Made by a program: the position numbers and the translations under genes. From Escherichia coli (GTDB lineage: Bacteria > Pseudomonadota > Gammaproteobacteria > Enterobacterales > Enterobacteriaceae), in the NCBI RefSeq assembly GCF_003991155.1, contig NZ_CP031294.1: a stretch of DNA of 64,000 nt; one strand, written 5' to 3'. A model generated the notes under the pieces. It was not told the origin of the DNA, did no database searches, and worked only from the letters and a program-made list of their open reading frames with translations. Of this stretch, positions 43,140 to 62,911 are shown one piece after another. The first letter of the stretch is position 1. Every line of letters starts with the position of its first letter.

Positions 43140-43147
43140 CACAACTC

Positions 43148-43622: not shown

Positions 43623-43630
43623 AAAGCAAT

Positions 43631-43666: not shown

Positions 43667-43792
43667 GCAATAACGCACAGGTGAAAAAGGATTTTATTCC
43701 GGTGAATGTGGTTTTGGCAGTGAGTTTTCAGGTTCAGTACCGAGTACACTTTTTACATTATTCTGATTTAGTGGCCGAAGGTGGCTGGTGGG

Positions 43793-44125
43793 CAGAATAA
43801 TCCTCTCCCCGAAAACCTACTGAAATCGATTGTGACCCGTTGGCTGTCTGGCACAATTACGCTGTAACTGGGCATTCAGAGGGAATCCAGCGGTAAGTAA
43901 GTTCGCCTGCACGTGAGCGCCTCTCTTCTTCCCGCACATTACAGGTGGGTAGCCGCAACTCTCCCTCTCGCTATACCGGTACGCCGCCGTTCCTGAACCG
44001 GCATCGAGCCTTCTCCCGAAATCCACACAGGCAACTCGACCGTTTCCCTGAAAACCTCCAGCCGTTCCCCGAAGGCAACCCAGCCGTTTCTGTAGCGGGA
44101 TGCAACCTTTTCCCTGTATGGACCG
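43793..44125. repeat. array of about 7 iteron-like repeats (C(C/T)GTTTCCC(T)GAA-type)
   Basis: ctccccgaaaacc, cttctcccgaaatcc, ccgtttccctgaaaacc, gccgttccccgaagg, gccgtttctgtagc, ccttttccctgtatgg, gccgttcctgaacc read directly. Confidence 0.5.
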
Positions 44126-44229
44126 AAGGCTGACCGTAGGGGTGTTACGGGGGATAAAATCAGGAGTTGAATAAATACGAAAAAGGAGGCGACACCCCTC
44201 CTTCTCTCCCCACTTATACATACCTGGCT

Positions 44230-44830
44230 TCTTCGCTATACATGTTGTGTTTTATTCGTGTTTTATCTGTCTCAACCTCTCTATGGACGTTAATACTCAC
44301 TCCTTCCAGAACGTTCTATACGGCGACTAATTCTGTTGGTGAATTGGGTGTGTTGTTCTCTCTGTCGGTGTATGTGGTTTCGTTCGTTTTGCGGTGGTTC
44401 TTCTATGGGGTGTTCTCGTCGTTTTGGTGATTGTTCTTCTCCGTGTATGGAGTAATGGCAGGTGGGCGATTCCTTTCGTTATTGTGTTTGAGTTGTTTGT
44501 CTGGAGTGCGTGAAGGGCTTTTGTAGTTATTCGTGTGTTGGGTAATGGCGTTTCCCGTGATTGTTCTGTTTCGTGTCTTTTGGGATTGAGAGAAACCTTG
44601 CGGTTACAGGCTTCGTTGGGGTTTCAGTGATTCTGGTGTTTCTTCGCTGTTTGGGTAATGGCGTGTCGTGGGTATCGCGCGTATGGAAGTTTCGAATTGC
44701 CTGTGAAAGTTAGGTTGGTTGTCCGGTAGCCTGAGAAGAAGAGGTGGGTCTTTTCGGTAGCCTGCCATAAAGAGGTTGGTTGTTTTTGGTAATGGCATAT
44801 GTGTTATTTAGTTGTTTTGTTATGCCTGAA
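44230..44830. repeat. strongly strand-skewed (G+T-rich on plus strand) non-coding tract with degenerate ~60-bp repeats (ggtaatggc..., cggtagcctg...)
   Basis: Base composition and repeated words read directly; ORFs in the tract are low-complexity and rejected. Confidence 0.5.
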
Positions 44831-45036
44831 AATAAGTTGTTTATATGGTTATGTAACGCAACGGGAACGATTTTGAGCGTGTGTTTTTGTTGGTAGTGTG
44901 TTGGGTCGTCTGTGGTGAAAATTGGACGCTGTGGCGCTGTCTGCTGCGTAGAATTACGGGTATAAGCAGTGATGTGTGAAAACGTCAATTTTTTAGACCA
45001 AATCGGGTGAAAGCGTTGATGTTTCGTTGATCTGTT

Positions 45037-45074
45037 ATTCAGTTGTTTTCTTATTGGTATAAACAACTGTAACC
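45037..45074. promoter_or_regulatory. family-2-related box with split arms (cagttgttt-N12-aaacaactg)
   Basis: Read directly. Confidence 0.45.
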
Positions 45075-45176
45075 TATTGATATTTAAGGATGTGATTCCA
45101 GGCATGGAAGGGGAGTAGTGGCGATCAACGGATTCTTATAGAAAAGAATCAAATTGTGACCGCCATTATCAATGTT

Positions 45177-45911
45177 TTACTTAGTTTTGTTTAGCAGAGA
45201 GAGAATTTCATCACTAATTTCACTCGCCTGTTTGATAGCCAATGCAGTTACCTCTTCTATGGTTGGTGACTGTTGATGCTCATATTTGGTTTCGGTTATG
45301 ACAATGTGTTCTTCACCAGAATTTGCGCATAGTGCCGCATTGACGATAAGGTTTGAGTAAGAATTTAGCAGAGCACTGTTGATGAACGCTTTCACGGTAT
45401 TACTGTCTGCACCAAATACATCTTTTCTGACCGCTTCAGCCTCACAGCGAACCCCTGCAGCAACATCGTGAAGAACATGTATGGCCTTGGAGCTTGTTTG
45501 TTCACAGTACTCAATCATTATTGTCGAATTGTTCTGTTCAACAAACGATCTGATGCCTGACGATTTACCCATAGCATCGAAGGCAGCGTGACCCGCACTA
45601 GTAGAGATATCTTCATAGAGTTCTTCATCGCTATCTTTTTCTTCAGGTGTCGAGGTGTCTTCATCGTCGTAATAGATATTGCCTTTAATCAGTGTCTTGG
45701 ACACTTGATATAAACAATAAGAAACGAGATTTAAGCATTGGATTTTAGCTGTATTGTCCTTTGTCGCCTCGCTATTCAGTTCTTTCGCTTCTTCAGTAAG
45801 GCTGTTGATAAGACTTTGTATTTTTTCCAACGCGTTAGGTGCACACTCCGCGTTGTCCATAAAGAATTTATAACCAGTCCCAGGGATTTCTAAACTTTTC
45901 AACTTTTTCAT
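45177..45911 (-). CDS. hypothetical protein
   Basis: 244 aa ORF. Confidence 0.5.
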   Translation of the reverse strand: MKKLKSLEIPGTGYKFFMDNAECAPNALEKIQSLINSLTEEAKELNSEATKDNTAKIQCLNLVSYCLYQVSKTLIKGNIYYDDEDTSTPEEKDSDEELYEDISTSAGHAAFDAMGKSSGIRSFVEQNNSTIMIEYCEQTSSKAIHVLHDVAAGVRCEAEAVRKDVFGADSNTVKAFINSALLNSYSNLIVNAALCANSGEEHIVITETKYEHQQSPTIEEVTALAIKQASEISDEILSLLNKTK

Positions 45912-45956
45912 TTCTTTGATAATCCTAAAAACAAACTACCAATGCTTTAATATCTG

Positions 45957-46256
45957 TTACCAGTTCCAGCACTCAAGCCCTTCAACGACCGGCGCACCAC
46001 AATCAAAATGTACAGAGTCAAAGCCTACATCAAGTACTTTCTGAATGTTAGCAATCGCGCCTTCGGATATACCATATCGACGCAAGTCCTCTTTCCAGAC
46101 ATCATCCTGTAACCCAGCGTGGACAATACAACCGCCGTCAATTTGTGAAACCCAATCCAGCTCATTGCTTGCGATCATGAATCGGCGAGCATCTTCCTCT
46201 GATGTATGAGATGAGCTGATCAATGCCACCTGGTAGGCTTGGGTAATGTTCAACAT
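45957..46256 (-). CDS. hypothetical protein
   Basis: 99 aa; two family-2 boxes upstream. Confidence 0.5.
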   Translation of the reverse strand: MLNITQAYQVALISSSHTSEEDARRFMIASNELDWVSQIDGGCIVHAGLQDDVWKEDLRRYGISEGAIANIQKVLDVGFDSVHFDCGAPVVEGLECWNW

Positions 46257-46266
46257 TTCAACAACT

Positions 46267-46340
46267 CCGAAACAATTTGTTTTCTTATGTGGCTTATTAT
46301 CTCAATCAACAAAAGGTAGAAAACAAATTGTTTTAGGGTT
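46267..46340. promoter_or_regulatory. two facing family-2 boxes (46267-46301 and 46315-46340)
   Basis: ccgaaacaatttgttttcttatgtggcttattatc and ggtagaaaacaaattgttttagggtt. Confidence 0.55.
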
Positions 46341-46417
46341 TGTTAAAGTCAGAAGGGGTTGTGTCTATATGAAAATGCCCAGCGTGTTGCCGGGCATTGC
46401 GAACAGAGGTTGTTTAA

Positions 46418-48451
46418 TTACTTAACCTGGTGGCCTGGTTTAGCACCAGCATCCGGGCTTAACAGGAAGATATCTTTCCCGCCGGGGCCAGCAGCCATCA
46501 CCATGCCTTCGGAGATACCGAAGCGCATTTTACGCGGAGCCAGGTTAGCCACCATAATGGTGTGACGACCAATCAGTGCCTGTGGGTCTGGATAAGCAGA
46601 ACGGATGCCTGAGAAGACATTACGCTTTTCACCACCGAGATCCAGTGTCAGACGCAGCAGTTTGTCAGAACCTTCGACAAACTCCGCGTTTTCAATCAGC
46701 GCCACACGCAGGTCAACTTTGGCGAAGTCGTCAAAGGTGATGGTTTCCTGAATCGGGTCGTCAGCCAGTGGGCCAGTTACCGGTGCAGCTGTGGCTTTCA
46801 CTTCTTCTTTGGATGCTTCCACCAGTGCTTCCACCTGTTTCATATCGATACGGTTATACAATGCCTTGAACGGATTCACTTTATGGCCCAGCAGCGGTTG
46901 CTGGATACCATCCCAGGTCAGTTCTGTATTCAGGAATGCTTCTGCACGTTCAGTCAGTTTCGGCAGTACCGGTTTCAAGTACGTCATCAGCACGCGGAAC
47001 AGGTTAATGCCCATAGAGCAAATCGCCTGCAGATCGGCATCGCGTCCTTCCTGCTTCGCCACCACCCACGGAGCCTGTTCATCGACATATCGGTTAGCCA
47101 GGTCAGCCAATGCCATGATTTCACGGATAGCTTTACCAAATTCGCGGCTTTCCCATGCTTCGCCAATCACTTCAGCGGCATCAGTAAAGGTTTTGTACAG
47201 TTGCGGGTCAGCCAGTTCGCTTGCCAGCACGCCGTCAAAACGCTTGTTGATAAAGCCTGCATTACGGGAGGCCAGGTTAACCACTTTGTTCACGATATCG
47301 GCATTCACGCGCTGAACGAAATCCTCCAGGTTGAGATCGATATCATCAATGCGCGAAGAGAGTTTCGCAGTGTAGTAGTAACGCAGGCTGTCGGCGTCAA
47401 AATGATTCAGCCAGGTGCTGGCTTTAATAAAGGTGCCGCGAGACTTGGACATCTTCGCGCCGTTCACCGTCACATAGCCGTGAACAAACAGGTTGGTCGG
47501 CTTGCGGAAGTTGCTGCCTTCCAGCATGGCAGGCCAGAACAGGCTGTGGAAGTAAACAATATCTTTACCGATGAAGTGGTACAGCTCGGCTGTGGAGTCT
47601 TTCTTCCAGTATTCATCGAAGCTGGTGGTATCGCCGCGCTTGTCGCACAGATTCTTGAAGGAACCCATGTAGCCAATCGGCGCGTCCAGCCAGACGTAGA
47701 AATATTTGCCCGGCGCGTTCGGAATTTCAAAACCGAAGTAAGGCGCATCGCGGGAGATATCCCACTGTTGCAGGCCGGATTCAAACCACTCCTGCATTTT
47801 GTTCGCCACCTGCTCCTGCAACGCACCGCTGCGGGTCCATGCCTGCAACATTTCGCTGAAAGAGGGCAGATCAAAGAAGAAGTGTTCGGAATCACGCATT
47901 ACCGGGGTAGCGCCAGAAACCACCGATTTCGGCTCGATCAATTCAGTCGGGCTATATGTTGCGCCGCAGACTTCACAGTTATCGCCGTATTGATCTGGCG
48001 CTTTACATTTCGGGCAGGTGCCTTTCACAAAACGATCCGGCAGGAACATGCCTTTTTCCGGGTCGTACAACTGAGAGATAGTGCGGTTTTTAATAAAACC
48101 GTTCTCTTTCAGGCGAGTATAGATAAGCTCAGACAGCTGGCGGTTCTCTTCGCTGTGCGTCGAGTGATAGTTGTCATAGCTGATGTTAAAGCCTGCGAAA
48201 TCAGTCTGGTGTTCCTGACTCATTTCGCCAATCATCTGCTCCGGTGTGATACCAAGCTGCTGTGCTTTCAGCATGATCGGCGTACCGTGGGCATCGTCGG
48301 CACAGATGAAATTAACCTCGTGGCCGCGCATTCGCTGGTAACGAACCCAGACATCAGCCTGGATGTGCTCCAGCATATGGCCGAGGTGGATTGAGCCGTT
48401 AGCGTACGGCAGCGCGCACGTCACCAGAATTTTCTTCGCGACTTGGGTCAT
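46418..48451 (-). CDS. metG: methionine--tRNA ligase
   Basis: Near-full-length match by recall to enterobacterial MetG: HIGH-type motif [16 protein letters not shown], zinc knuckle CPKC...C..C, C-terminal tRNA-binding domain; start set at MTQVAKK (ATG 48451), the ORF-track start is an upstream artefact. Confidence 0.95.
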
Positions 48452-48608
48452 AGTAGGCATTACTTCTTTGTAGTGAAAAGGGGCTTGATAGTAACAAAAT
48501 GGCCTTATGTCTGCCATGTGATAACAGCATTTCTCATAAATGATTAAATGTCGTAGCTGGAGTACACTACAAGGCGACAATTGCGCAAATTAAAATAAAG
48601 GAGACGGG

Positions 48609-49709
48609 ATGAGCGAGTCCAAATCGCCGGATGCCCTGAGAGCAATGGTAGCCGGTACGCTGGCTAATTTTCAGCACCCAACCCTGAAACACAACCTGAC
48701 TACGCTTAAAGCGTTACACCATGTTGCGTTGATGGATGACACACTGCATGTCGAACTAATCATGCCTTTCGTGTGGAATAAGCCTTTTGAAGACCTGAAA
48801 GAGCAATGTAGTGGTGATCTGCTCCGTATCACTGGCGCAAAGGCTATTGACTGGAAGCTGTCGTACAACATTGCCACGCTTAAGCGCGTCAAAAACCAAC
48901 CAGGCATTAATGGCGTTAAGAACATTATCGCCGTCAGCTCAGGCAAGGGCGGCGTGGGTAAATCCTCCACGGCGGTAAACCTGGCACTGGCGTTGGCTGC
49001 TGAAGGTGCGAAAGTTGGTATTTTGGATGCCGATATCTATGGTCCATCAATTCCAACCATGCTGGGCGCGGAAAACCAACGTCCAACCTCACCTGACGGT
49101 ACTCACATGGCACCTATCATGTCTCATGGCCTGGCAACCAACTCTATTGGTTATCTGGTCACCGACGACAATGCAATGGTGTGGCGTGGACCGATGGCCA
49201 GCAAGGCGCTGATGCAGATGTTGCAGGAAACTCTATGGCCTGATCTGGACTATCTCGTTCTCGATATGCCGCCGGGCACTGGTGATATTCAGTTGACGCT
49301 GGCGCAGAACATTCCTGTAACTGGTGCGGTTGTGGTAACTACGCCGCAAGACATCGCGCTGATCGATGCGAAGAAAGGCATTGTGATGTTCGAAAAAGTC
49401 GAAGTGCCGGTACTGGGTATCGTCGAAAACATGAGTGTGCATATTTGCAGTAACTGCGGTCATCACGAGCCAATTTTTGGCACCGGTGGCGCACAGAAAC
49501 TGGCCGAGAAATACAACACGCAGTTGTTAGGCCAAATGCCACTTCATATCTCTCTTCGTGAAGATCTGGATAACGGAACACCAACCGTTATTAGTCGTCC
49601 AGATAGCGAATTTACGGCTATTTATCGTGACCTCGCAGATCGCGTTGCCGCCCAAATGTATTGGCAAGGTGAAGTAATACCTGGCGAAATCGCATTCCGC
49701 GCAGTGTGA
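48609..49709 (+). CDS. mrp: Fe-S cluster carrier ATPase Mrp/ApbC
   Basis: Walker A SGKGGVGKS, CxxC motif (CSNCGHH), conserved divergent arrangement with metG as in enterobacterial chromosomes. Confidence 0.93.
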   Translation: MSESKSPDALRAMVAGTLANFQHPTLKHNLTTLKALHHVALMDDTLHVELIMPFVWNKPFEDLKEQCSGDLLRITGAKAIDWKLSYNIATLKRVKNQPGINGVKNIIAVSSGKGGVGKSSTAVNLALALAAEGAKVGILDADIYGPSIPTMLGAENQRPTSPDGTHMAPIMSHGLATNSIGYLVTDDNAMVWRGPMASKALMQMLQETLWPDLDYLVLDMPPGTGDIQLTLAQNIPVTGAVVVTTPQDIALIDAKKGIVMFEKVEVPVLGIVENMSVHICSNCGHHEPIFGTGGAQKLAEKYNTQLLGQMPLHISLREDLDNGTPTVISRPDSEFTAIYRDLADRVAAQMYWQGEVIPGEIAFRAV

Positions 49710-49714
49710 TAAAA

Positions 49715-49734
49715 GGCGGTGCATTGCACCGCCT
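49715..49734. terminator. hairpin between convergent mrp and umuD'-like genes (ggcggtgca-ttgcaccgcc)
   Basis: Inverted repeat read directly. Confidence 0.55.
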
Positions 49735-49745
49735 AATCAGTTCTC

Positions 49746-50135
49746 CTACATCACGGGACAATCATCAAACTCGCCACTTCTTGCGTCGTTGATAATGTGA
49801 GTGATCACACCAAACACGGCATTGCTGCCCGTGCATCCATCGTCATCCTTTGGCAATGCTTCCTTCTTACCGGTTCTTAAATCCTCCAGATGCTGACGTG
49901 GGTACTTCCGGTATCTTTTTACGCGATATTCCCCATCCAGAGCGCATACAAGCAGAGAACCATCAACCGGGGTAAGTGAGGAATCGACCACCAGCAATGC
50001 ACCCTGTAATATTCCCTCACGATGATGACTATCAGCTGCCCTCATGAAGTAGGTCGCTGAAGGATGTCTAATTATCTGCTGATCAAGAGAAATACGGCTC
50101 TCAGCATAATCCGCCGCAGGAGAAGGGAAGCCCAT
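49746..50135 (-). CDS. UmuD'-like (pre-cleaved UmuD / HumD-type) S24 peptidase-fold protein
   Basis: Begins M-GFPSPAADY, i.e. at the position of the UmuD self-cleavage product; lacks the N-terminal arm; divergent C-terminal tail. Confidence 0.7.
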   Translation of the reverse strand: MGFPSPAADYAESRISLDQQIIRHPSATYFMRAADSHHREGILQGALLVVDSSLTPVDGSLLVCALDGEYRVKRYRKYPRQHLEDLRTGKKEALPKDDDGCTGSNAVFGVITHIINDARSGEFDDCPVM

Positions 50136-50233
50136 AGCGTTTTCACCTCAGAGTACTGTTTATCCATACAGTATACATTAAAGATGCTTGAAGTGTGCAA
50201 TAGCGCGATGCTTTGCGCTCGTCTGGTGGCGCG

Positions 50234-50485
50234 TTATTTTTTGGCTATATCTTCTTTCTGATATACCGGATCGTTTCCTTTTGGCAGCAGGAGGCTTAAC
50301 TGCCGGTAGTGCCGTAGCCGTTCCATGAAATAGGTGCGCAGGTTCTCAGGTTGCTCACGGGCTACCTGTTCCGCTATGACGGGTATGTTCAATCGCTCTT
50401 TGTAGGCAACCCCCCTGGCAGCCAGGTCAACGTTAACTTTATTCCTTTCTTCCTGGCTTTTGGCTGCTATGTTCCAGTTGCTCAT
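50234..50485 (-). CDS. hypothetical protein
   Basis: 83 aa ORF. Confidence 0.4.
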
Positions 50486-50747
50486 GTTTAAGGCTCACAT
50501 TTCCAGATGGTATTCTGAACACCCGTACCAGGCGCAAGATGAGGGTTAGCGTTCGCGCTATGCAGATATACAGCTTTAGACTTTCCGTATTGCTGACAGG
50601 CTTTATCTGCGTTTTTTGGCAGGCTATCCAAGCCAATACCAGCCATCGAACTGGATGCTAACCTTTTCACCGTCATTGTATTGCACCATCGCACACCCAG
50701 ACATAGCTAAAATCGCACCGACAATACCGCTTTTCCAAAAAGCTCTA

Positions 50748-50769
50748 ATTAGGTCATTCGTTACCTAAT
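50748..50769. promoter_or_regulatory. inverted repeat attaggt-N8-acctaat upstream of hsdM (candidate operator)
   Basis: Read directly. Confidence 0.3.
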
Positions 50770-50837
50770 GTCCGAACTGCTAAAGCATCCAAGTTGCTGT
50801 AGAATCACATCCAATTACTTAAACCTGAAATAAGTGG

Positions 50838-52396
50838 ATGAAAATGACAAGTATTCAACAACGTGCAGAGCTTCATCGCCAGATCTGGCAAATTGCTAAC
50901 GATGTCAGGGGTTCAGTCGATGGATGGGATTTTAAGCAGTACGTTTTGGGCGCGCTTTTTTACCGTTTTATCAGCGAAAATTTTTCCAGTTATATTGAAG
51001 CCGGTGATGACAGTATCTGTTATGCGAAACTGGATGACAGCGTAATTACTGATGACATTAAAGACGATGCCATCAAAACTAAAGGCTACTTCATCTACCC
51101 CAGTCAGCTTTTCTGCAACGTAGCTGCGAAAGCAAATACTAATGACAGACTGAATGCAGATTTAAACAGCATCTTCGTTGCTATCGAAAGTTCTGCTTAC
51201 GGTTATCCTTCAGAAGCTGACATCAAAGGTTTGTTTGCTGATTTCGATACCACCAGTAACCGCCTGGGTAACACCGTTAAAGATAAAAATGCCCGCTTGG
51301 CTGCGGTTCTGAAAGGGGTTGAAGGGCTAAAACTTGGTGACTTCCATGAACATCAGATTGACCTGTTCGGTGACGCCTATGAGTTCCTGATTTCTAACTA
51401 TGCGGCGAATGCCGGTAAGTCCGGCGGCGAGTTCTTTACACCGCAGCACGTCTCTAAGCTGATTGCACAACTGGCTATGCACGGGCAGACCCACGTTAAC
51501 AAAATCTACGACCCGGCAGCAGGCTCCGGTTCGCTGTTGTTGCAGGCGAAAAAACAGTTTGATGACCATATCATCGAAGAAGGTTTTTTTGGTCAGGAAA
51601 TCAACCATACGACCTATAACCTGGCGCGTATGAACATGTTTTTGCACAACATCAACTACGACAAGTTTGATATCAAGCTGGGTAATACACTGACTGAGCC
51701 GCACTTCAGAGATGAAAAACCGTTTGATGCCATCGTTTCTAACCCGCCGTATTCGGTGAAATGGATTGGCAGCGATGACCCGACGCTGATTAACGATGAA
51801 CGTTTTGCCCCGGCTGGCGTTCTGGCCCCCAAATCCAAAGCTGACTTTGCGTTTGTATTACATGCGCTGAACTATCTTTCGGCCAAAGGTCGCGCTGCGA
51901 TTGTCTGCTTCCCAGGCATTTTTTACCGTGGCGGCGCGGAGCAGAAAATCCGTCAGTATCTGGTCGACAATAACTATGTCGAAACCGTGATTTCACTGGC
52001 ACCGAATCTGTTCTTTGGCACCACTATTGCCGTCAATATTCTGGTGCTGTCTAAACATAAAACGGATACCAAAGTTCAGTTTATTGATGCCAGCGAACTG
52101 TTCAAAAAAGAGACTAACAACAACATTCTGACCGATGCTCATATCGAACAGATTATGCAGGTATTTGCCAGCAAGGAAGATGTTGCTCATCTGGCGAAAT
52201 CTGTTGCGTTTGAGACTGTTGTCGCGAATGACTATAACCTGTCGGTGAGCAGCTATGTGGAAGCGAAAGATACTCGCGAAATTATCGATATCGCTGAGCT
52301 GAATGCTGAGCTGAAAACCACGGTCAGCAAAATCGACCAGTTGCGTAAAGATATTGATGCGATTGTTGCTGAGATTGAAGGTAGCGAGGTACAGGC

Positions 52397-52400
<4 letters not shown>
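50838..52400 (+). CDS. hsdM: Type I restriction-modification N6-adenine DNA methyltransferase subunit
   Basis: NPPY motif ([10 protein letters not shown]), AdoMet-binding motif, 520 aa; operon with hsdS and hsdR. Confidence 0.93.
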
Positions 52401-53656
<1,256 letters not shown>

Positions 53657-53777
53657 TTGACCATTGCTACCGACCGGATCACCTTAACATCCGGTCTATA
53701 TAGAGACTATTTTTTACACGCCGGAAGTCGCCCTTAAAGCCCTTCCGGCCCTTGCCAGACGGCACAAAGGATGCGCT

Positions 53778-56700
53778 ATGACTCATCAGACACACACCAT
53801 TGCTGAATCCAATAACTTTATCGTTCTTGATAAGTACATCAAAGCCGAGCAAACAGGCGACAGCTACCAGAGCGAATCGGACCTGGAACGTGAACTGATT
53901 CAGGATCTGCGGAATCAGGGCTATGAATTTATTTCCGTAAAATCTCAGTCGGCGATGCTGGCCAACGTTCGGGAACAGCTTCAGAGCCTCAATGGTGTGA
54001 TGTTTAATGACAGCGAGTGGCGGCGCTTCACGGAGCAGTATCTGGACAACCCCAGCGATGGTATTCTGGATAAAACCCGTAAAATCCATATCGACTATAT
54101 CTGCGACTTTATTTTTGACGACGGGCGACTTGAGAACATCTATTTGATAGATAAAAAGAATCTCATGCGCAATAAGGTGCAGATTATCCAGCAGTTTGAA
54201 CAGACGGGTTCTCATGCTAACCGTTATGACGTCACGATCCTGGTTAATGGTTTACCGCTGGTGCAAATCGAACTAAAAAAACGCGGGGTGGCGATTCGTG
54301 AGGCTTTCAACCAGATACATCGTTACAGTAAAGAGAGTTTTAACAGCGAAAATTCCCTGTTTAAGTATCTGCAACTGTTTGTCATTTCTAACGGCACCGA
54401 TACCCGTTATTTTGCCAACACGACAAAGCGCGATAAAAACAGTTTTGACTTCACCATGAATTGGGCGAAATCAGACAACACGCTGATTAAAGACCTCAAA
54501 GACTTTACCGCTACCTTTTTCCAGAAACATACTCTGCTGAATGTTCTGGTGAACTACAGCGTTTTTGACAGTAGTCAGACGCTACTGGTGATGCGACCGT
54601 ACCAGATTGCCGCCACCGAGCGCATTCTGTGGAAAATTAAGAGTTCCTTTACAGCGAAGAACTGGTCAAAACCGGAAAGCGGTGGGTATATCTGGCATAC
54701 TACCGGTTCTGGTAAAACCCTCACCAGCTTTAAAGCCGCGCGTCTGGCAACAGAGCTGGACTTTATTGATAAAGTCTTCTTTGTGGTCGACAGGAAAGAC
54801 CTCGATTACCAGACCATGAAGGAATATCAGCGTTTTTCGCCAGACAGCGTCAACGGCTCGGAAAATACCGCAGGCCTTAAACGAAATCTGGATAAGGACG
54901 ATAACAAAATTATCGTCACTACTATTCAGAAACTCAATAACCTGATGAAAGCAGAAAGCGACCTGCCTGTATATAATCAGCAAGTGGTGTTTATATTTGA
55001 TGAATGCCACCGCAGCCAGTTTGGAGAAGCGCAGAAAAACCTGAAGAAGAAATTCAAACGCTATTATCAGTTTGGTTTTACCGGCACCCCTATTTTCCCG
55101 GAAAACGCTTTAGGCTCAGAAACGACCGCCAGCGTATTTGGTCGTGAATTGCATTCGTATGTAATTACCGATGCGATTCGTGATGAAAAAGTGCTCAAAT
55201 TCAAGGTGGACTACAACGATGTGCGGCCACAGTTTAAATCTTTAGAGACAGAAACCGACGAGAAAAAACTGAGTGCGGCTGAAAATCAGCAGGCATTTCT
55301 TCATCCCATGCGTATACAGGAAATTACGCAATATATTCTGAATAACTTCCGCCAGAAGACCCACCGTACTTTCCCAGGTTCCAAAGGCTTTAATGCCATG
55401 CTGGCAGTGAGTAGCGTGGATGCCGCGAAAGCCTATTACGCGACGTTTAAACGGTTACAAGAGGAAGCAGCTAATAAATCGGCTACCTATAAACCGCTGC
55501 GTGTTGCAACAATCTTCTCCTTTGCCGCCAATGAAGAACAAAATGCCATTGGTGAAATTTCCGATGAAACTTTTGATACCAGCGCAATGGACAGCAGTGC
55601 TAAAGAGTTTCTTGACGCTGCAATTCGTGAGTATAACAGCTATTTTAAAACTAACTTCAGCACCGACAGTAACGGTTTTCAGAACTACTATCGTGATTTA
55701 GCCCAACGGGTTAAAAATCAGGATATCGATCTGTTAATTGTCGTTGGGATGTTTTTAACCGGCTTCGACGCTCCAACATTGAACACGCTATTCGTCGATA
55801 AAAACTTGCGTTTTCACGGCCTGATGCAGGCATTCTCCCGTACCAACCGCATTTATGACGCTACTAAAACCTTCGGTAACATCGTCACTTTTCGGGATCT
55901 GGAACGCTCAACCATTGATGCCATAACGCTGTTTGGTGATAAAAATACTAAAAATGTGGTGTTAGAAAAGAGTTATGCTGAGTATATGGAAGGCTTTACA
56001 GATGCTGCCACTGGTGAAGCTAAACGCGGCTTTATGGCAGTAGTTTCAGAACTGGAACAACGGTTCCCTGACCCTGCCAGTATTGAAAGTGAAAAACAGA
56101 AGAAAGACTTCGTAAAACTGTTTGGTGAATACCTGCGTGCCGAGAACATCCTGCAAAACTATGATGAATTTGCCACGCTGAAAGCCCTGCAACAAATCGA
56201 TCTTAGCGATCCTGTTGCGGTAGAAAAATTCAAAGCAGAACATTATGTGGATGATGAAAAGTTCGCTGAATTGCAAACAATTCGTCTCCCTGCTGAACGC
56301 AAGATTCAGGATTATCGTTCTGCCTATAACGATATTCGCGACTGGCAGCGCCGTGAGAAAGAAGCTGAGAAAAAAGAGAAATCAACCACTGACTGGGATG
56401 ACGTAGTTTTTGAGGTCGATTTGCTGAAGTCTCAGGAAATAAACCTGGATTATATCCTTGGACTGATTTTCGAACACAACAGACAAAATAAAGGCAAGGG
56501 CGAAATGATCGAAGAGGTCAAACGCTTAATTCGTTCAAGCCTGGGGAACCGGGCGAAAGAGGGCCTGGTGGTCGATTTTATTCAGCAAACGAACCTGGAT
56601 GATTTACCAGACAAAGCCAGTATCATTGAGGCATTCTTTACGTTTGCTCAACGCGAACAGCAACGTGAAGCAGAAGCATTGATAAAAGAAGAAAATCTCA

Positions 56701-56894
56701 ATGAAGAGGCGGCGAAACGCTATATTCGCACGTCTTTAAAACGCGAATACGCCACCGAAAATGGCACAGAATTAAACGAGACATTACCAAAACTTAGTCC
56801 GTTAAACCCGCAATATAAAACGAAAAAACAGACCGTTTTCCAGAAAATCGTCACGTTTATTGAAAAGTTCAAAGGAGTAGGTGGGCAGATATAG
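53778..56894 (+). CDS. hsdR: Type I restriction enzyme endonuclease/translocase subunit (EcoR124I HsdR-like)
   Basis: 1038 aa; SF2 helicase motifs (TGSGKT, DECHR), N-terminal nuclease domain; sequence recalled as very close to EcoR124I HsdR. Confidence 0.93.
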
Positions 56895-56952
56895 TGTATT
56901 AATCTGAACCAGATCTGGCAGACATCTGTGCAAATTGCAGATAGCTGTCAGA

Positions 56953-57363
56953 TCAAACCATCGTAGGGATGTTTGTATCCACTTTGAACTCAGGTACACC
57001 AACGAACTCTTTAACCTTCATCTGGTAGCCGGTTCTGTCAGTTTTGATGACTTCCTGTTTGCCCTCTATAAACTGCTCACGCCACTCGTCGCGACGGGAA
57101 GCTGGCATGATCAGCAAAACGTTAGTCATATCCGTGACCTTCCTCCAGTACTCGGCCCAAATATTCTGTTTCACCCATTCCAGATCGACTTTATCCAGCC
57201 AAGCTCGATTCAAACGTGAGCGTTCTTCATCTGGTCGATGGTTTAGTCTCAGCAGGCGATTAATCATGTTGTGGCGTTCGTCGCCATAAACGAAGTCGTG
57301 TACCTGATACATGAAGGCGATCTCTTTCTCGCACTCGGCCACGATTTCGTGGATGACATTCAT
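56953..57363 (-). CDS. hypothetical protein
   Basis: 136 aa ORF; heptamer repeat directly upstream of start. Confidence 0.45.
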   Translation of the reverse strand: MNVIHEIVAECEKEIAFMYQVHDFVYGDERHNMINRLLRLNHRPDEERSRLNRAWLDKVDLEWVKQNIWAEYWRKVTDMTNVLLIMPASRRDEWREQFIEGKQEVIKTDRTGYQMKVKEFVGVPEFKVDTNIPTMV

Positions 57364-57370
57364 TTCCTGC

Positions 57371-57398
57371 CGATAGTCGATAGTCGATAGTCGATAGC
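57371..57398. repeat. heptanucleotide tandem repeat (CGATAGT)x4, 8 bp upstream of the 57363 start codon
   Basis: Read directly. Confidence 0.85.
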
Positions 57399-57443
57399 AG
57401 CGTTTGAGTTGGGATCGTCGATGATGGAAAGGGCTGTATTCAT

Positions 57444-57484
57444 AATAGCACCATTAAGAAGTGATTTGTTTAATGGTGCTATTA
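57444..57484. terminator. 14-bp-stem hairpin (aatagcaccattaa...ttaatggtgctatt)
   Basis: Read directly; downstream of gene 57547..58218. Confidence 0.5.
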
Positions 57485-57546
57485 TTTCAAAAATGAAAAG
57501 GTACTAAATAGAAATAAACAGGCAATCCTTCAAATAAAGGCATTGG

Positions 57547-58218
57547 CTAATCATACTTGGAGGTATTTATCACCAGAATTTTGTTTGTATAAATCTTCTT
57601 AATATCCCATGTGACATTACCGGAATACCATTGACCGTTATATACTTGGTTTCCAGTTGCACCTGTCATTGTTACATAGACAGGTCTGTCGTAATCGGTT
57701 CGTCTATAGTTATATACTCCAACCATAGCAGGCATTACCGCACATGGATACCCCATATCTATTGTAAATTGAGGGTCAGAAATAGTGATAAGTTTCGCAT
57801 CAAGGGGCATCATCTCACCGTGATACACCATTGCGCCTGCGCTGTTATACATGGCAATGCCATAGCCAGAATGTGGTAACACCATATCAGAAAAAGCATA
57901 AACTGTTATTGTTCCGGGGCTACCATTTACCTGATGCAATCTGAGAGCATTGTATCCGTTACTATGTTCATGAATAAACATCATGTTCGCCTTATTACTG
58001 CTTTTTATGAAAAAAAAACATGATTTGTTTGATGGGATTGATGTTTGAAAAACAGAACCTTTAGATGTAGACATTGTCCCTTTATTAATCAGATTTTGCG
58101 GAGTAAATTCAGGACTCATCCACAAACTTCCATCTGATTGAGTAATTGACATCCCGAACATAATTATCCCCAGTATGTGTATATGTAAGAACCAAGCCCC
58201 GTATATAAATTTGACCAA
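57547..58218 (-). CDS. hypothetical protein (AT-rich; contains T9 homopolymer on coding strand)
   Basis: 223 aa ORF; overlaps upstream ORF by 55 nt in another frame. Confidence 0.4.
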   Translation of the reverse strand: MVKFIYGAWFLHIHILGIIMFGMSITQSDGSLWMSPEFTPQNLINKGTMSTSKGSVFQTSIPSNKSCFFFIKSSNKANMMFIHEHSNGYNALRLHQVNGSPGTITVYAFSDMVLPHSGYGIAMYNSAGAMVYHGEMMPLDAKLITISDPQFTIDMGYPCAVMPAMVGVYNYRRTDYDRPVYVTMTGATGNQVYNGQWYSGNVTWDIKKIYTNKILVINTSKYD

Positions 58219-58445
58219 CTAACCGTATTTCCATTAATAGTAACATTTGGAACAGGTAAATTGATGTAGTTGTCGTTGTTAAGAGGCATTAATGACCACA
58301 CGGCATGTAGTGATTTACCCGGTGGCGGATTAGAGTACGTCTTAGAGCCTGATGACGCCGTAAATCGATCAAGAAAAAAAATAGGTGTAAGGAAGCCAGT
58401 AACGTTAATTCCTTTATTGTTGTAAATCCCTGTACCGTATGCCAT
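58164..58445 (-). CDS. hypothetical protein (possibly N-terminal part of a frameshifted gene with 57547..58218)
   Basis: 93 aa ORF, AT-rich. Confidence 0.3.
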   Translation of the reverse strand: MAYGTGIYNNKGINVTGFLTPIFFLDRFTASSGSKTYSNPPPGKSLHAVWSLMPLNNDNYINLPVPNVTINGNTVSWSNLYTGLGSYIYTYWG

Positions 58446-58499
58446 TTTTCACCCTTGTTTTTATCAACACAATATGGCCGATCATGCGGCCATATCAGA

Positions 58500-59069
58500 T
58501 CAATTAGAGCTTTGAAAGACTTTGTGTGGTTGTGTTGCGAGGTTATGTCGATGGCTTAACTCACGCATCATGTCTTCAAGGCGACTCTTTGTGTCGTCGA
58601 GTTGGTCGGCCATTGCTCCCAAAAGCTGACGAACGGCCATAGGATCATCGCTGTTTAGTGATGGCATTTTATAACCCGCCTGAGAAGACATAAGATTGAA
58701 CGCAGACATCAACATCGTTAGAGAGGATTTAAGCCCAGCAATTTCACGATCTTTGCTGGCAATAATCGTCTCACTCTTGTTAGTGTCATCAGTTCGTTGA
58801 GTCTCGCTCACCATATCCAAAGTCGCCTGCAACTTATCAGCGCGCTCTTTTTCAGCAAGATAATGAACACCGAAATGATGTGCTAAAGCTACAACCTGAG
58901 TTGGCTCTTCAAAGGTGGACTCAAAATTAAGTGCTGTAACCACTCTCTCAAATATGGAAACGTCTTCTATTCCTCGAAGAATGGCTAACATTTTGACCAG
59001 TTCATTAGCATCCATTTCTTCGAATAAGGCGTTTTGTTCATCAGCTATCGCTTTGCATTTCTTGCACAT
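58500..59069 (-). CDS. hypothetical protein
   Basis: 189 aa; family-2 box upstream. Confidence 0.5.
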   Translation of the reverse strand: MCKKCKAIADEQNALFEEMDANELVKMLAILRGIEDVSIFERVVTALNFESTFEEPTQVVALAHHFGVHYLAEKERADKLQATLDMVSETQRTDDTNKSETIIASKDREIAGLKSSLTMLMSAFNLMSSQAGYKMPSLNSDDPMAVRQLLGAMADQLDDTKSRLEDMMRELSHRHNLATQPHKVFQSSN

Positions 59070-59084
59070 GTGTTTTTCCTAATT

Positions 59085-59119
59085 CTTAAACAAGTTGTTT
59101 TCTTATTGGCTTTATTGTG
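59085..59119 (-). promoter_or_regulatory. family-2 promoter/operator-like box
   Basis: cttaaacaagttgttttcttattggctttattgtg. Confidence 0.6.
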
Positions 59120-59366
59120 ATGTGGCATAAAAGGGGAGCAAGCTAAACGTAAAGGTGCAAACTCTCTATTTCGGTCAACGAAACACAAGGGCCATTTGGC
59201 CCTTGTTATTAACACGTTGCTTTACGGACTAGCGGATAAGCGAAGTAGATCGCCAGACCAATGAGGACGCCATCAGAAATGACAGACATCATCTTTCCCG
59301 TAAAATCCACCAACACCGCCATCACCAGAAGAGCAATGACGATCACAAGCCGGAATCTCTCAAGCA

Positions 59367-59792
59367 TTAGAGATAAGCATCCAGTGACAACTGAAGCGCC
59401 TGGGCGATCTTTTTCAGTGCCTGCTCTTCTTGTTCACCAATGCCATCCTGATCGGCAATATCAAGGCACAGACACAGAACATCGACCGCCTCTGGAGTAC
59501 CCGCAATATCAGACAGCTCACGAATAGCCTGTGCATTAGCAGAACGAGGGGACGCTTCGTAACGAGCACGGATATTGGCGCTCATTTGGGCAATTTCACC
59601 AGCAAACGGAGAAAACGCAGGCAGAGCTGCAATTGTCTTCTCAAGAATGGCAATTTCTTTTGCGTCACATGTGCCGTCGGCATAGGAGATCATGTACGCG
59701 CCCCACACGGTGGCCTCAACCGCATCACGGTTCTCCATTTTTTTGACTTCGATAACTGCTTTACGAGTTTTCTTTTTGAAGAAACCTAACAT
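59367..59792 (-). CDS. TerB-like (tellurite-resistance TerB domain) protein, tentative
   Basis: 141 aa; two D-x-DG-x-x-x-x-E segments (SYADGTCDAKE, IADQDGIGEQEEQA) as in TerB. Confidence 0.45.
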   Translation of the reverse strand: MLGFFKKKTRKAVIEVKKMENRDAVEATVWGAYMISYADGTCDAKEIAILEKTIAALPAFSPFAGEIAQMSANIRARYEASPRSANAQAIRELSDIAGTPEAVDVLCLCLDIADQDGIGEQEEQALKKIAQALQLSLDAYL

Positions 59793-59812
59793 GTGTTTTC
59801 CTTTTGTTATTT

Positions 59813-59838
59813 GTCAAAACAAGTTGTTTTATAGTTTC
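59813..59838 (-). promoter_or_regulatory. family-2 palindrome (aaaacaagttgtttt)
   Basis: Read directly, about 20 bp upstream of ATG 59792. Confidence 0.55.
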
Positions 59839-59885
59839 ATAAATTGCTTACGCAAAGATGGTCAATGCATATGCACTAACAGCCG

Positions 59886-60074
59886 TCAGAAATAACCAAG
59901 TACCGAACCGACTGGAAAAACAAAAATCCCAACTACACGAGCCAAGGTCATGCCAGCCTGAAACTGGAGATCGCCAGAGCAAACAAGTTTTATAATGTTC
60001 GATACCCAACCGGCGGCCATGAGGGCAAGAATTGCCAGCCAAATTTTTCCAAAGTGATTTGAAAACCAGTTCAT
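59886..60074 (-). CDS. small membrane protein
   Basis: 62 aa, two hydrophobic segments. Confidence 0.35.
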   Translation of the reverse strand: MNWFSNHFGKIWLAILALMAAGWVSNIIKLVCSGDLQFQAGMTLARVVGIFVFPVGSVLGYF

Positions 60075-60083
60075 ACAACCGCC

Positions 60084-60578
60084 TTAGTCACAGCATGATC
60101 CTGAGTAACCGGATGAACTTGAGGTATCGCATCCACCGTCATCCCATCCAGAGTGACAGGACGCTCTACTGGAGTGGTGGTAATTGTCGTCGACGGAGGT
60201 GTGGTGATGGATGAACCCGGCATCAAAAGGCTCTGGCCGGCTGGAACGGCTACCGTCGCCAGTGAAACTATAATGAGAACGTAGGCCATTGGTTTCAGCC
60301 TCTTTCTTTGAAAATTTTCCATTCGAACTGTCCTTGTTGTTTTTCTCCTTCACTAAAGGCCGTGTACTTTTCGCTTCGCGTGAAGAACCAGAGGCAACAA
60401 TCGCCCCCACGTTCGCAACAACTGACGCTTGATTATCTAAACGTTCATTCAGCAACCGAACGGTAGTCTCTAGTTCATCAAGACGTGACATAACACGACC
60501 GCTAAACAATTCGGCCAAAATTTGACGTAAAGAACGAGGACGTTTAGTTGCAGAAGTGAAATAGGTTTGACGTGCCAT
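60084..60578 (-). CDS. hypothetical protein (C-terminal half may be artefactual; a signal-peptide ORF is embedded in another frame)
   Basis: 164 aa ORF; embedded ORF 60071..60322 begins MAYVLIIVSLATVAVPAG. Confidence 0.3.
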   Translation of the reverse strand: MARQTYFTSATKRPRSLRQILAELFSGRVMSRLDELETTVRLLNERLDNQASVVANVGAIVASGSSREAKSTRPLVKEKNNKDSSNGKFSKKEAETNGLRSHYSFTGDGSRSSRPEPFDAGFIHHHTSVDDNYHHSSRASCHSGWDDGGCDTSSSSGYSGSCCD

Positions 60579-60723
60579 GTGGACTCCATCCAGTGTCAGA
60601 AAGAGTTGCGGCTGGCGATTGCCAGCCGCCTTTCTCGTTCCATCCTGGAACTGTGTCTTACCGACACATTGTCATCCTGACGCTGATAAGATACATGATT
60701 TAAAATGATAGGTAAACACTTAC

Positions 60724-61317
60724 TTACCACTTGTTATAAACAAAACCAATATCTTTCTTGTGAGGCATATCTGCTGCTGAAAAAGCTGCGATCTTCGCGA
60801 GTCGATCACATATTTCATTTTCACGATGCCCGGCGTGACCTTTAACCCACTTCCAGCGAACATTATGTCGACTTGCGGCCTCATCCAGACGTTTCCACAG
60901 ATCAACATTCTTTACCGGTTTTTTATCAGAAGTCATCCATCCATTACGTTTCCACCATTTCATCCACTGTGTCATGCCGTTTTTCAGATACTGGCTATCA
61001 GAGTACAAAATAACGTTGCATGGATATTTCAAACGCTCCAGCCCGATAAGTGCGCCCATCATCTCCATGCGGTTATTGGTGGTGCTATGAAAACCATCTG
61101 AGAACTCGCGTTCCTCACCACGATACTGGAGAACGATACCGTAACCGCCCGGGCCACCCGGATTTTTAAGGCAAGAGCCATCACTAAAGATTTTCACGGT
61201 TTTGAGCTGGGGATTGAACTCTACGACAGGCGTTGTGGGATTGGTGCGGGGAGAATTTTTGTTTTTGGCTTTTTTGCGAGTTTTTGCTTGCGATCGGGCT
61301 GGTGTCTTCGTCGTCAT
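60724..61317 (-). CDS. RNase HI-like ribonuclease with basic N-terminal extension
   Basis: Start set at ATG 61317 (MTTKTPAR) with AGGAG SD; four acidic residues align with the RNase HI catalytic D/E/D/D positions by recalled alignment to E. coli RnhA. Confidence 0.75.
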
Positions 61318-61900
61318 ATAAACTCCTGAATCAAGCGCCGCGCCGATTTTTTCCTCGCGCGTGCGCACACGCGTGCGTGTTAATAATTATTAAAATAAAC
61401 AAATTACTTCCCAGAACAGGTTTTTTATAAACCTGAACTGAACGAACGAAGTGAGTGAAGTTCACCTCGAACGAAGTGAGAGGTTGTCTTTTCAGGTAAT
61501 ACTCTCCCAGGGAGGTGAGTATAAAATTCCTCACCAACCTGGTCGTTTCATAACCTGAAAAGCTATGGTCTAAGTCTACTGCCAGCTTAGACTTGGGAAG
61601 TTATGGATGACAGCACCCCAGAACCGAGATCTTCCCACACTTTATGAAGGGGAGTACTGGATTCAACCTCTCGAAACACCCCAGACTCGACAATCATAAA
61701 GTGACCCTTGTCTCTGCTCACTTTGGTTCCCCCTTCCCCGACACCTAAACGGCACCGGTTCTACGCTGGTAGTGAGCTTTTTTAAACCTGACGCCAGTGA
61801 CGCTTACCCCCACCCATCAGGTCGAGTCTCCAGTCTACGACTGGAAACTATCAGATCTTAGCACTTACAATTCACTTTATGAATAGTTTGTACTTATCTA

Positions 61901-62155
61901 TCATTTCGATTGATTATTTTTTCGACCATGTAGTTGAACATTCAAGGCAAACACCTCGTTGATCAACTCACCTAAAAGCTGTTCAACAAGTTCGCGATGC
62001 TCCCCAAGATGCAAGCACTTAATTGCCCATTCGTACAAGTTGAAAGCCTGCTCACGATCTTTCATCATTTCACGAGCCTGGGCCAGAAAATCGCTCTCTA
62101 CGAGCGCAACGACATTAGTCGGATATGACATGTTGGTTTCCTTAAAGTGGTTCAT
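61901..62155 (-). CDS. small hypothetical protein
   Basis: 84 aa ORF. Confidence 0.35.
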   Translation of the reverse strand: MNHFKETNMSYPTNVVALVESDFLAQAREMMKDREQAFNLYEWAIKCLHLGEHRELVEQLLGELINEVFALNVQLHGRKNNQSK

Positions 62156-62228
62156 AAAATCGATTTTAAAGCGTCTGGGAAGGGGTTCTAGTGGATTCTG
62201 TAGTGGTGTTCAGGTCTGGGAGTCTCTG

Positions 62229-62289
62229 ATATAAAACAGCCTGCTTCCGTATATTAATAATTAATATGTAGTTATTTATATATACAGAA
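62229..62289. repeat. long imperfect palindrome (agcctgcttccgtatat-AT-rich core-atatacagaagcaggct), copy 2 of 2
   Basis: Read directly; same arms and orientation as 31926-31993. Confidence 0.7.
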
Positions 62290-62317
62290 GCAGGCTAATT
62301 ACAGACGCCAGAACAAA

Positions 62318-62911
62318 CTAAGCAGCCTTCTTTGATGGTCTTTTTTTCCTGATCACATTCGCAGGATCATACCCTCCCAGACTTTTCATGACGTCCAAAG
62401 GGATCTTGCTTATAGAGTGCCCAGCGTCCTGACAGAATCCTCGAAAAACAACGAGCATACTGCCACCGGGGTTGATGTTTACTTCTACCTGACCCAAATT
62501 GACGTCAGGCTCGACAAACGCTACGCGGCCACCAGACAGAATAATCGTCTCATTCGCACACTCTGTTGCACGCTCATACCACTTTGTATCGAGGGATTGA
62601 GGAATTAGCATCACTGTTGTAACTCCGCGAGCCTGCTCACGTATAGCCGCATCAATCCAGGGGGAGATTTTGGAGTAGGGTGGATTGAGGAAGGCAATTG
62701 TACCTGGCTGTCCCCATTCAGATTTCAAAGCATCACGCTCAACGCCTATGAAATTAGGCAGCTTCGCATTGTCCTTGTTGCAGGCAACGTCAACATCAAA
62801 TGTCACTCCAAGATAACGTTGAATGGCAGAAAACAGCCAGTCAGGTGTTCTCCAGAGGTCACGAAGAGAGTTGTCGCGCTTTCGCTGTTTGATTTTTTCG
62901 GCTGCAATCAT
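62318..62911 (-). CDS. phage-type DNA N6-adenine methyltransferase (Dam-like)
   Basis: FLNPPYSK catalytic motif, 197 aa. Confidence 0.75.
   Translation of the reverse strand: MIAAEKIKQRKRDNSLRDLWRTPDWLFSAIQRYLGVTFDVDVACNKDNAKLPNFIGVERDALKSEWGQPGTIAFLNPPYSKISPWIDAAIREQARGVTTVMLIPQSLDTKWYERATECANETIILSGGRVAFVEPDVNLGQVEVNINPGGSMLVVFRGFCQDAGHSISKIPLDVMKSLGGYDPANVIRKKRPSKKAA

Follow-up and report, generated by a model that had tools for sequence, protein, structure and literature searches.

We analysed a 64,000-nucleotide (nt) stretch of Escherichia coli DNA (contig NZ_CP031294.1 of assembly GCF_003991155.1; the whole stretch is called 'the window' below), which represents about 58% of an SSU5-like E. 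coli phage-plasmid of about 110 kb. The interval 59367 to 62911 of this window is probably the end of a conserved module of annotated DNA-replication and nucleotide-metabolism genes, and it contains a separate structured RNA gene of about 455 nt, located between the gene of a 76-amino acid (aa) protein and rnhA, which encodes RNase HI (Table 1). An initial annotation of the interval had placed three genes correctly, those of a TerB-like protein, an RNase HI and a Dam-like methylase; it made no mention of the RNA gene, of a TciB-like gene, or of the genes for proteins of 62, 164 and 76 aa.

A conserved block upstream of rnhA

Of all the DNA in the region, the best conserved turned out to be the 532-nt 'gap' that separates rnhA from the 76-aa gene. 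Across Escherichia, Salmonella, Klebsiella, Enterobacter and Cronobacter, the core of the RNA, designated 'type A', is 93 to 98% identical, compared to 67 to 84% for the flanking dam and rnhA genes; purifying selection acts on it far more strongly than on the surrounding proteins. A blastn search found the RNA in 686 PLSDB plasmids, in a single copy per element. Among 5426 complete E. coli genomes, 231 contained it, at 233 places, of which 231 were on plasmids. Such a distribution, single copy and at a constant locus, leads us to reject a mobile repeat or miniature inverted-repeat transposable element as the cause of the high conservation.

A sigma-70-type promoter sits just past the stop codon of the 76-aa gene. 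It has 8 of 12 matches, which is below the threshold of a simple promoter scan; the TT of its -35 box and the TAnnAT of its -10 box are invariant in the Escherichia, Salmonella, Klebsiella, Enterobacter and Cronobacter sequences. Inspection by eye showed the same layout, -35 TTTACN, 17 nt, -10 TAnnAT, in the divergent lineages as well as in the type-B RNA described below. A palindrome over the -35 box (TAAGTA...TACTTA-like) was considered as a repeated operator and discarded, as the window contains no second copy of it.

The predicted start opens a hairpin (61827-61847) whose sequence differs completely between lineages while its pairing is kept, with compensatory changes at 6 of the 9 pairs. 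From there, the RNA extends to a conserved ...UCUGGGAAGUAA with a U-rich tract (61391-61405) after it. The conserved sequence breaks off exactly at ...CUGGGAAGUAA, U-rich sequence comes next in most lineages, and a poorly conserved spacer of 75 to 230 nt separates the type-A RNA from the next gene.

Fold, covariation and coding potential

The minimum free energy z-score was -4.7 for the defined 457-nt RNA; over the whole gap it was -5.9 on the gene strand and -4.3 on the opposite strand. An RNAalifold analysis of 31 close relatives predicted 137 pairs in 18 helices, 14 of these pairs being compensatory. In the alignment of close relatives (A3), 99.2% of cells were paired, compared to 35 to 48% when the partners were slid.

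Since the central helices never vary within this group, distant relatives were sought by way of the 76-aa protein. Using nhmmer, homologous RNAs were found in five further lineages (E-values of 5e-115 to 2e-16), and one more was linked through an intermediate. A covariance model of the central domain confirmed the divergent homologues, which lie on other Enterobacteriaceae elements, with scores of 65 to 171 bits. In an alignment of 19 sequences that included these divergent members (A5), 59 of 131 pairs had compensatory changes, compared to 29.2±3.1 in shuffled alignments, none of the 500 shuffles reaching 59, and 10 to 31 in slid controls. The proportion of paired cells was 93.2%, compared to 85.1% (shuffled) and 35 to 51% (slid), and the covariation score was 0.285 versus 0.158. 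Helices 3, 11, 14, 17 and 24 carry 4 to 9 compensatory pairs each.

As about 10.6% of cells are G-U pairs, the fold is clearly worse on the opposite strand, where pairing drops to 84.7% (from 93.2%) and 88.9% (from 99.2%). This asymmetry points to an RNA read in the direction of the genes, and not to a DNA cruciform. A pseudoknot between the 5' CUCGAC and a complementary central GUCGAG was also envisaged; it was rejected, the 5' bases being already engaged in a helix with strong covariation.

The RNA contains a 44-aa open reading frame (ORF), CYRAN_81 in the annotation of Escherichia phage Cyrano. Indels of 1 and 2 nt break its frame in the Klebsiella lineage and in lineages L072 and L038 (labels of this kind designate the homologous loci compared, such as L005, L086, L087 and L168-L174), so that it was rejected as a protein gene. 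Searches of PHROG, Pfam and NCBIfam gave no match to CYRAN_81, and no ORF is common to the divergent members of the RNA family. With compensatory pairs beyond those of the controls, on one strand, and without a conserved ORF, this is a structured non-coding RNA.

No known family matched it: when Rfam 15 was searched at E ≤ 10, nothing came near a gathering score, and only chance-level matches (E-values of 1.7 to 2.9) were returned; for type B as well, Rfam gave noise only. A full-text literature search for non-coding, structured or small RNAs of pHCM2, pKPHS2 or phage-plasmids retrieved unrelated papers only. The repeated CACUUCGUUCG motif of the RNA is found nowhere else in the window. A 21-mer scan of genome contigs returned Buttiauxella, Kluyvera and a single contig of a Bacteroidales metagenome-assembled genome. 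The latter (L176, SLOR01000036.1) has an exact 21-mer match at 3122-3142 of a 3.3-kb contig, on which the covariance model found no central domain; the match is probably due to chance or to a mis-binned fragment.

A second RNA at the same position

Thirty Klebsiella plasmids form a sister lineage with the order dam, 76-aa gene, gap of about 570 nt, rnhA. Their gap holds, in the same slot and with the same promoter layout and a 5' hairpin, an RNA of about 440 nt that we named 'type B' (L086 3388-3828; L087; L157-L167). Its z-score is -5.5, and among 133 predicted pairs there are 11 compensatory and 20 one-sided changes. It ends in a canonical intrinsic terminator, UUCGACC...GGGUCGAAG followed by U7, some 20 to 90 nt before the downstream start codon. 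Type A and type B share no similarity detectable with nhmmer profiles in both directions, with single-sequence nhmmer started from the divergent members, or with the unfiltered central-domain covariance model. Homology between them was therefore not retained; we treat them as positional counterparts.

Both L086 (at 3871-3900) and L087 (at the equivalent place) have an AGGA ribosome-binding site just past the type-B terminator, along with a short ORF that lies upstream of the annotated start of rnhA. This ORF, which reads MSSSPYRED* in L086 and is longer in L087, may be a leader peptide.

The gene downstream of the RNA is not always an intact rnhA. The RNase H of L087 (3998-4561, Klebsiella michiganensis pRHBSTW-00909_5) has Asn or Ser at the positions of Asp10 and Asp70 and a shortened glycine loop; judging from these substitutions it is probably inactive, and L087 retains the RNA upstream of it. 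A Tad2-like gene (PF11195, weak match) lies downstream of the RNA in L171 (2438-2743), L173 (2439-2744) and L168 (4105-4416). In L171 and L173 it replaces rnhA and the RNA is kept, which indicates that the RNA is not tied to RNase H.

Expression in E. coli LF82

Cyrano is the SSU5-like phage-plasmid pLF82, and expression data are available for its host. In the LF82 study, CYRAN_81 is listed as a 'moron', among the genes expressed 12-fold above the prophage background (PMC9928086). The S1 table gives for LB 117 fragments per kilobase per million (fpkm) for CYRAN_81, compared to 9.5 for the 76-aa gene, 8.4 for rnhA and 6.0 for dam, and in macrophages at 6 h the log2 value was 10.3, compared to about 4.9 for rnhA (PMC9928086). 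In these published RNA-seq data the RNA region is thus 12 to 14 times more abundant than both its neighbours. Since CYRAN_81 lies far above the 76-aa gene as well as rnhA, the RNA is transcribed independently, with a signal that does not extend into rnhA. We conclude that, with the element in its plasmid-prophage form, the RNA is made and rnhA and dam stay silent. Over five conditions, the level of CYRAN_81 parallels that of the putative repressor CYRAN_45.

The most highly expressed locus of the element in LF82, 723-fold above the prophage background, is CYRAN_43 (Cyrano 40268-40822), annotated as a hypothetical protein. This locus may encode a further RNA that has been mis-annotated, or else be a small gene with high expression.

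Possible roles of the RNA

We propose that the RNA would be released as a discrete, stable transcript, and that it would act through its folded structure, as free RNA or as a ribonucleoprotein, in the plasmid-prophage state. This mode of action fits best because promoter and end belong to the RNA itself, because lysogens express it next to silent neighbours, because purifying selection on it is extreme, and because it persists irrespective of the gene downstream. As its level tracks that of the phage repressor across conditions, we infer that it most likely functions in lysogeny, in maintenance or in interaction with the host. Long antisense pairing is not the mode we have in mind: complementarity between the RNA and the other 63.5 kb of the window is limited to chance-level matches of 10 to 16 nt, and a trans-antisense regulator with long complementarity was rejected on these grounds.

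Several points weigh against this proposal. The central helices are invariant among close relatives, and their covariation comes from five divergent lineages (L170, the L168 group, L172, L169 and L174), which were aligned by MAFFT and not by structure, so that some L169 and L174 columns may be misaligned; moreover, the shuffled controls ignore phylogeny. The RNA-seq support consists of per-ORF counts that cover 135 nt of the element in one strain. The 3' end of type A is a weak intrinsic terminator, which the terminator scan did not call. The lack of a long antisense target neither supports nor excludes regulation by a short seed. Finally, the roles suggested below for RNase HI, its tail and Dam rest on family knowledge.

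Alternatively, the RNA could be a cis-acting leader or attenuator, riboswitch-like or antiterminator-like, made from its own promoter and normally stopped at the terminator; a signal such as lytic induction or a metabolite would give read-through into rnhA and the genes behind it, the RNA found in lysogens being the terminated leader. We consider this unlikely. The RNA is indeed co-directional with rnhA and immediately upstream of it in most lineages, but the downstream gene is not constant (rnhA, the apparently inactive rnhA of L087, or the Tad2-like gene), and conservation is far higher in the RNA than in the gene under its supposed control. The position of the type-B terminator, shortly before the downstream start codon, would suit a leader; this is not the case, however, for type A, with its poorly conserved spacer before the next gene. 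Also compatible with attenuation are the abundance of the RNA in LF82 while rnhA is silent, and the fact that the promoter scan saw no separate sigma-70 promoter for rnhA in the spacer. On the other hand, at about 450 nt and about 130 pairs the RNA exceeds by far the size of the known leaders, all of which are, to our knowledge, far smaller, and no riboswitch or leader family of Rfam matches it.

A bolder version of the free-RNA proposal would make the type-A RNA the first of a new class of large, complex-folded RNAs in Enterobacteriaceae phage-plasmids, with type B as its sequence-unrelated counterpart and with a dedicated role in the plasmid prophage (such as lysogeny, copy number or host defence). 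RNase HI would then act on the RNA or together with it, and its tail would be an RNA-binding arm, RNA and enzyme together forming a module. In this strong form we find it quite unlikely.

Comparison with ColE1 suggests another possibility, which is very improbable: the RNA would be a pre-primer, forming a persistent R-loop at an origin just downstream, and would be cut there by the phage RNase HI to yield a 3'-OH primer. ColE1 RNA II is a highly folded RNA of about 550 nt that depends on RNase HI; the present RNA resembles it in size and folding, adjoins RNase HI in most lineages, contains G-rich runs (GGGUGGGGG, GGGGAAGGGGG), has an AT-rich segment downstream with a (CA/CG)n tract behind it, and is made in the plasmid state, in which the element has to replicate. 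However, the transcript appears to end before the spacer, and type B has a strong terminator with neither AT-rich stretch nor (CA/CG)n tract. The RNA is kept in L171 and L173, which have no RNase H downstream, and in L087 despite the substituted Asp residues; this evidence is indirect, since the host RNase HI could take over. Contrary to ColE1, no antisense partner was seen, the promoter scan giving no RNA I-like promoter over the RNA, and the element has a Rep-type replicon of its own, the plasmids being already typed as IncFIB or other rep-cluster replicons; Cyrano also encodes a Pol III alpha-type polymerase.

That there is no RNA gene at all, the block being CYRAN_81 or a DNA-level site (for protein binding or packaging) and the interval protein-coding accessory cargo, is hardly credible: Cyrano does annotate a 44-aa coding sequence, the LF82 study does list a 'moron', and very high core conservation would also fit a DNA site, but the ORF is frame-broken in several lineages, not conserved in divergent members and without protein-family match, while substitutions preserve the pairs (59 of them compensatory), the numerous G-U pairs hold only for the strand that is transcribed, and a conserved promoter precedes a block transcribed well above its neighbours.

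Protein genes of the interval

Table 1. Coordinates (window positions) of the features found in and around the interval
Feature	Position	Strand	Evidence or remarks
TciB-like small membrane protein, 52 aa, DUF3927	59209..59367	-	PF13064 E 1e-12; phrog_1470 'TciB-like' E 2.8e-21
TerB-domain protein, 141 aa, P1 TciA-like	59367..59792	-	Pfam TerB 31.5 bits vs 24.4 cut-off; phrog_632 E 4.8e-63
Hydrophobic 62-aa protein	59886..60074	-	phrog_6006 E 2.1e-25; annotated in Cyrano, SSU5 and PGAP records
164-aa protein, Ser/Gly/Cys/Asp/His-rich C-terminus	60084..60578	-	phrog_10411 E 9.2e-78, full length
GC-rich 9-bp hairpin after rnhA	60608..60629	.	Terminator-like on both strands
RNase HI, 197 aa, from conserved ATG	60724..61317	-	NF001236 equivalog 221 bits vs 160
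Codons of the 37-aa basic N-terminal extension of RNase HI	61207..61317	-	Frame kept in all lineages
Alternating purine-pyrimidine (CA/CG)n tract	61356..61380	-	Untranslated spacer between RNA and rnhA
Unannotated structured non-coding RNA gene, type A, about 455-457 nt	61392..61848	-	Conservation, covariation, expression
44-aa ORF CYRAN_81, not a gene	61587..61721	-	Inside the RNA
Sigma-70-type promoter of the RNA	61855..61883	-	-35 TTCATA (61883-61878), 17-nt spacer, -10 TAAGAT (61860-61855), TG before -10
76-aa helical protein, always immediately upstream of RNA	61901..62131	-	phrog_5343 E 9.8e-53
Orphan phage Dam-family N6-adenine DNA methyltransferase, 197 aa	62318..62911	-	PF05869 E 2.5e-38; TIGR01712 113.9 bits

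The TerB, RNase H and methylase assignments of the initial annotation are all supported by profile searches, the check it had named beforehand. Since the protein genes of the interval are syntenic in the relatives and already annotated in public records, we regard them as ordinary members of known families.

RNase HI. The Pfam RNase_H profile (PF00075) matches with 155.5 bits (E-value of 1.3e-45; cut-off 25.8). Residues 38 to 180 align to residues 2 to 143 of E. coli RNase HI, with E-values of 1e-62 to 1e-65 against chains of the Protein Data Bank (PDB). All five catalytic equivalents (Asp10, Glu48, Asp70, His124 and Asp134 in E. coli numbering) are present, in the conserved contexts FSDGSC, NNRMEMM, YSDSQY, GHAGH and ICDRLA. 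To judge by its sequence, the enzyme is a bona fide RNase HI. It shares with the E. coli enzyme (rnhA; PDB 2RN2/1RNH family) about 61% identity over the catalytic domain, the active site and the basic protrusion, and differs from it by the N-terminal tail and a longer C-terminus. From family knowledge, it would most likely clear RNA primers and R-loops when the phage or plasmid replicates.

The N-terminal extension had been estimated at about 55 residues, because the maximal ORF with its GTG start (60724-61368) was taken. We place the start at the ATG at 61317, because the frame upstream of it is broken by indels among relatives, in the alternating (CA/CG)n tract, because a GGAG lies 5 nt upstream of the ATG, and because the PGAP and Cyrano annotations chose the same codon. 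With a protein of 197 aa, the extension before the residue aligned to E. coli Leu2 is therefore 37 aa long. It is real and basic, as had been proposed, with a net charge of about +8, and it is predicted to be disordered: the AlphaFold2 (AF2) model has no secondary structure over residues 1 to 29 and a confidence score (pLDDT) below 50 there, compared to above 90 for most of the catalytic domain. Its two ends are conserved (MTTKTPAR... at the start and 13 residues at the end), its middle is variable, basic or Q/H/P-rich, and indels between lineages are in-frame. A tail is also present in the type-B sister lineage (MAKKPTKQKG...FDPRLK), where the enzyme is only 37 to 45% identical, which argues that it is old. 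Pfam finds RNase_H only and no hybrid-binding domain in the tail, which, unlike the N-terminus of eukaryotic and some bacterial RNases H1, is not such a folded domain. In the simplest reading it is a disordered basic segment that would raise nucleic-acid affinity, in a non-specific way as family knowledge suggests, and we consider it a modest variant.

The (CA/CG)n tract upstream of rnhA is potentially Z-DNA-forming; it is conserved in type-A elements and variable in length.

Dam-family methylase. Both curated cut-offs were passed (131.8 bits compared to 28.1 for PF05869; 113.9 compared to 97.05 for TIGR01712), and the catalytic motif IV, (D/N)PP(Y/F/W), is present as NPPY at residues 76 to 79. 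Like other members of its family (933W L0094, HP1 and T1 Dam), the protein is small and has no cognate nuclease beside its gene, but identity to the methylases of 933W, HP1 and T1 is only 25 to 39% (1604 phage records in the family). No sequence relative was found in the PDB. The number of GATC sites in the homologous Cyrano stretch is 73, compared to 64±7 expected, neither depleted nor enriched, and is uninformative as a clue to the specificity of the enzyme. By analogy with its family, it would most likely methylate phage DNA during lytic growth.

TerB/TciB pair. The start of the TciB-like gene overlaps the stop of the TerB gene by one base, and Cyrano annotates the pair as P1 TciA-like and TciB-like. 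The P1 tciA and tciB genes are TerB-like genes of 'tellurite/colicin resistance, inhibition of cell division'. As in P1, a TerB-domain protein is directly followed by a small DUF3927/TciB-like protein; contrary to P1, the pair is present in only some of the SSU5-like lineages and is without terZACDE context, no Ter-family match (terZ, A, C, D or E) being found among the neighbouring genes with Pfam and PHROG. SSU5 and an Enterobacter relative (L005) have no TerB gene and carry an antirepressor/Rha gene at its place, which makes the pair the only truly variable cargo of the interval.

This bears on the view of the interval as the 'self-sufficiency or anti-defence cargo' of a large temperate phage. 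It applies to the variable TerB/TciB pair, but not to dam, the 76-aa gene and rnhA, which are fixed in a conserved module; the PADLOC defence models found no match in the interval except 'orphan methyltransferase' for Dam.

Small proteins. The length of the 164-aa protein varies by multiples of 3 among relatives, and an 83-aa ORF that overlaps its gene in another frame (60071-60578) has a hydrophobic segment and no family support. The 76-aa protein has 60 homologous clusters, all from Enterobacteriaceae where the source organism is named. Its AF2 model consists of three helices (pLDDT 78), for which a fold search against the PDB gave no significant match. A Rop-like RNA-binding helical hairpin was rejected for this protein, the model being three-helical and Rop not being among the PDB matches.

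Genomic setting

The element is 99.9% identical to NZ_CP172196, and positions 40000 to 60000 of the window match E. coli plasmids of about 110.7 kb at 99.9%. Over the 4-kb region studied, identity is 98.7% with Cyrano and 77 to 80% with Salmonella phage SSU5 and the Klebsiella phage-plasmids. All genes of the interval are on the minus strand, at the distal end of a long co-directional module that, in the Cyrano and SSU5 annotations, comprises ribonucleotide reductase, a MazG-like protein, ThyX, DHFR and a 3'-5' exonuclease; a T4 Pnkp-like kinase is named in the Cyrano record only. Synteny extends over Salmonella, Klebsiella, Enterobacter and Cronobacter relatives, the order dam, 76-aa gene, rnhA being fixed in SSU5 and in the Klebsiella, Enterobacter and Cronobacter relatives. 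No transfer RNA (tRNA) or transfer-messenger RNA gene was found near the RNA.

Two other features of the window were recorded. At 46418-49709, the element carries metG (methionyl-tRNA synthetase) and apbC genes of its own; this pair, whose nucleotide identity to its chromosomal counterpart is about 90%, occurs on 221 E. coli plasmid records. Just upstream of the interval, at 50838-56894, there is a complete type I restriction-modification system (hsdM, hsdS, hsdR). At about the hsd position, Cyrano has instead a 1.7-kb DUF4942 gene, named a putative DNA modification methylase in the SSU5 record.

Relation to known RNAs and significance

Structured RNAs longer than 400 nt are rare, and have repeatedly proved to be ribozymes, ribonucleoprotein scaffolds or self-assembling particles. 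Among them, ROOL and GOLLD are large 'ornate' bacterial and phage RNAs whose function is unknown (bioRxiv 10.1101/2024.12.08.627333). Like these, the RNA described here is a multi-branched, strongly conserved non-coding RNA of more than 400 nt on a phage-type element; unlike these, it has no sequence or structure match in Rfam, occurs in Enterobacteriaceae phage-plasmids, and is not beside tRNA genes. We therefore file it as a new family within the loose kind of large phage-associated RNAs to which ROOL and GOLLD belong.

The elements that carry the RNA are found in about 4% of complete E. coli genomes, and in hundreds of clinical Klebsiella, Enterobacter and Salmonella isolates. SSU5-like phage-plasmids spread resistance genes (PMC9600943). 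The RNA occurs in the best-studied bacterial family and lends itself readily to genetic tests. It is made in lysogens and also inside macrophages, has been mis-annotated as a 44-aa 'moron' protein or left blank, and thus provides a concrete example of how ORF-calling annotation hides an RNA gene.

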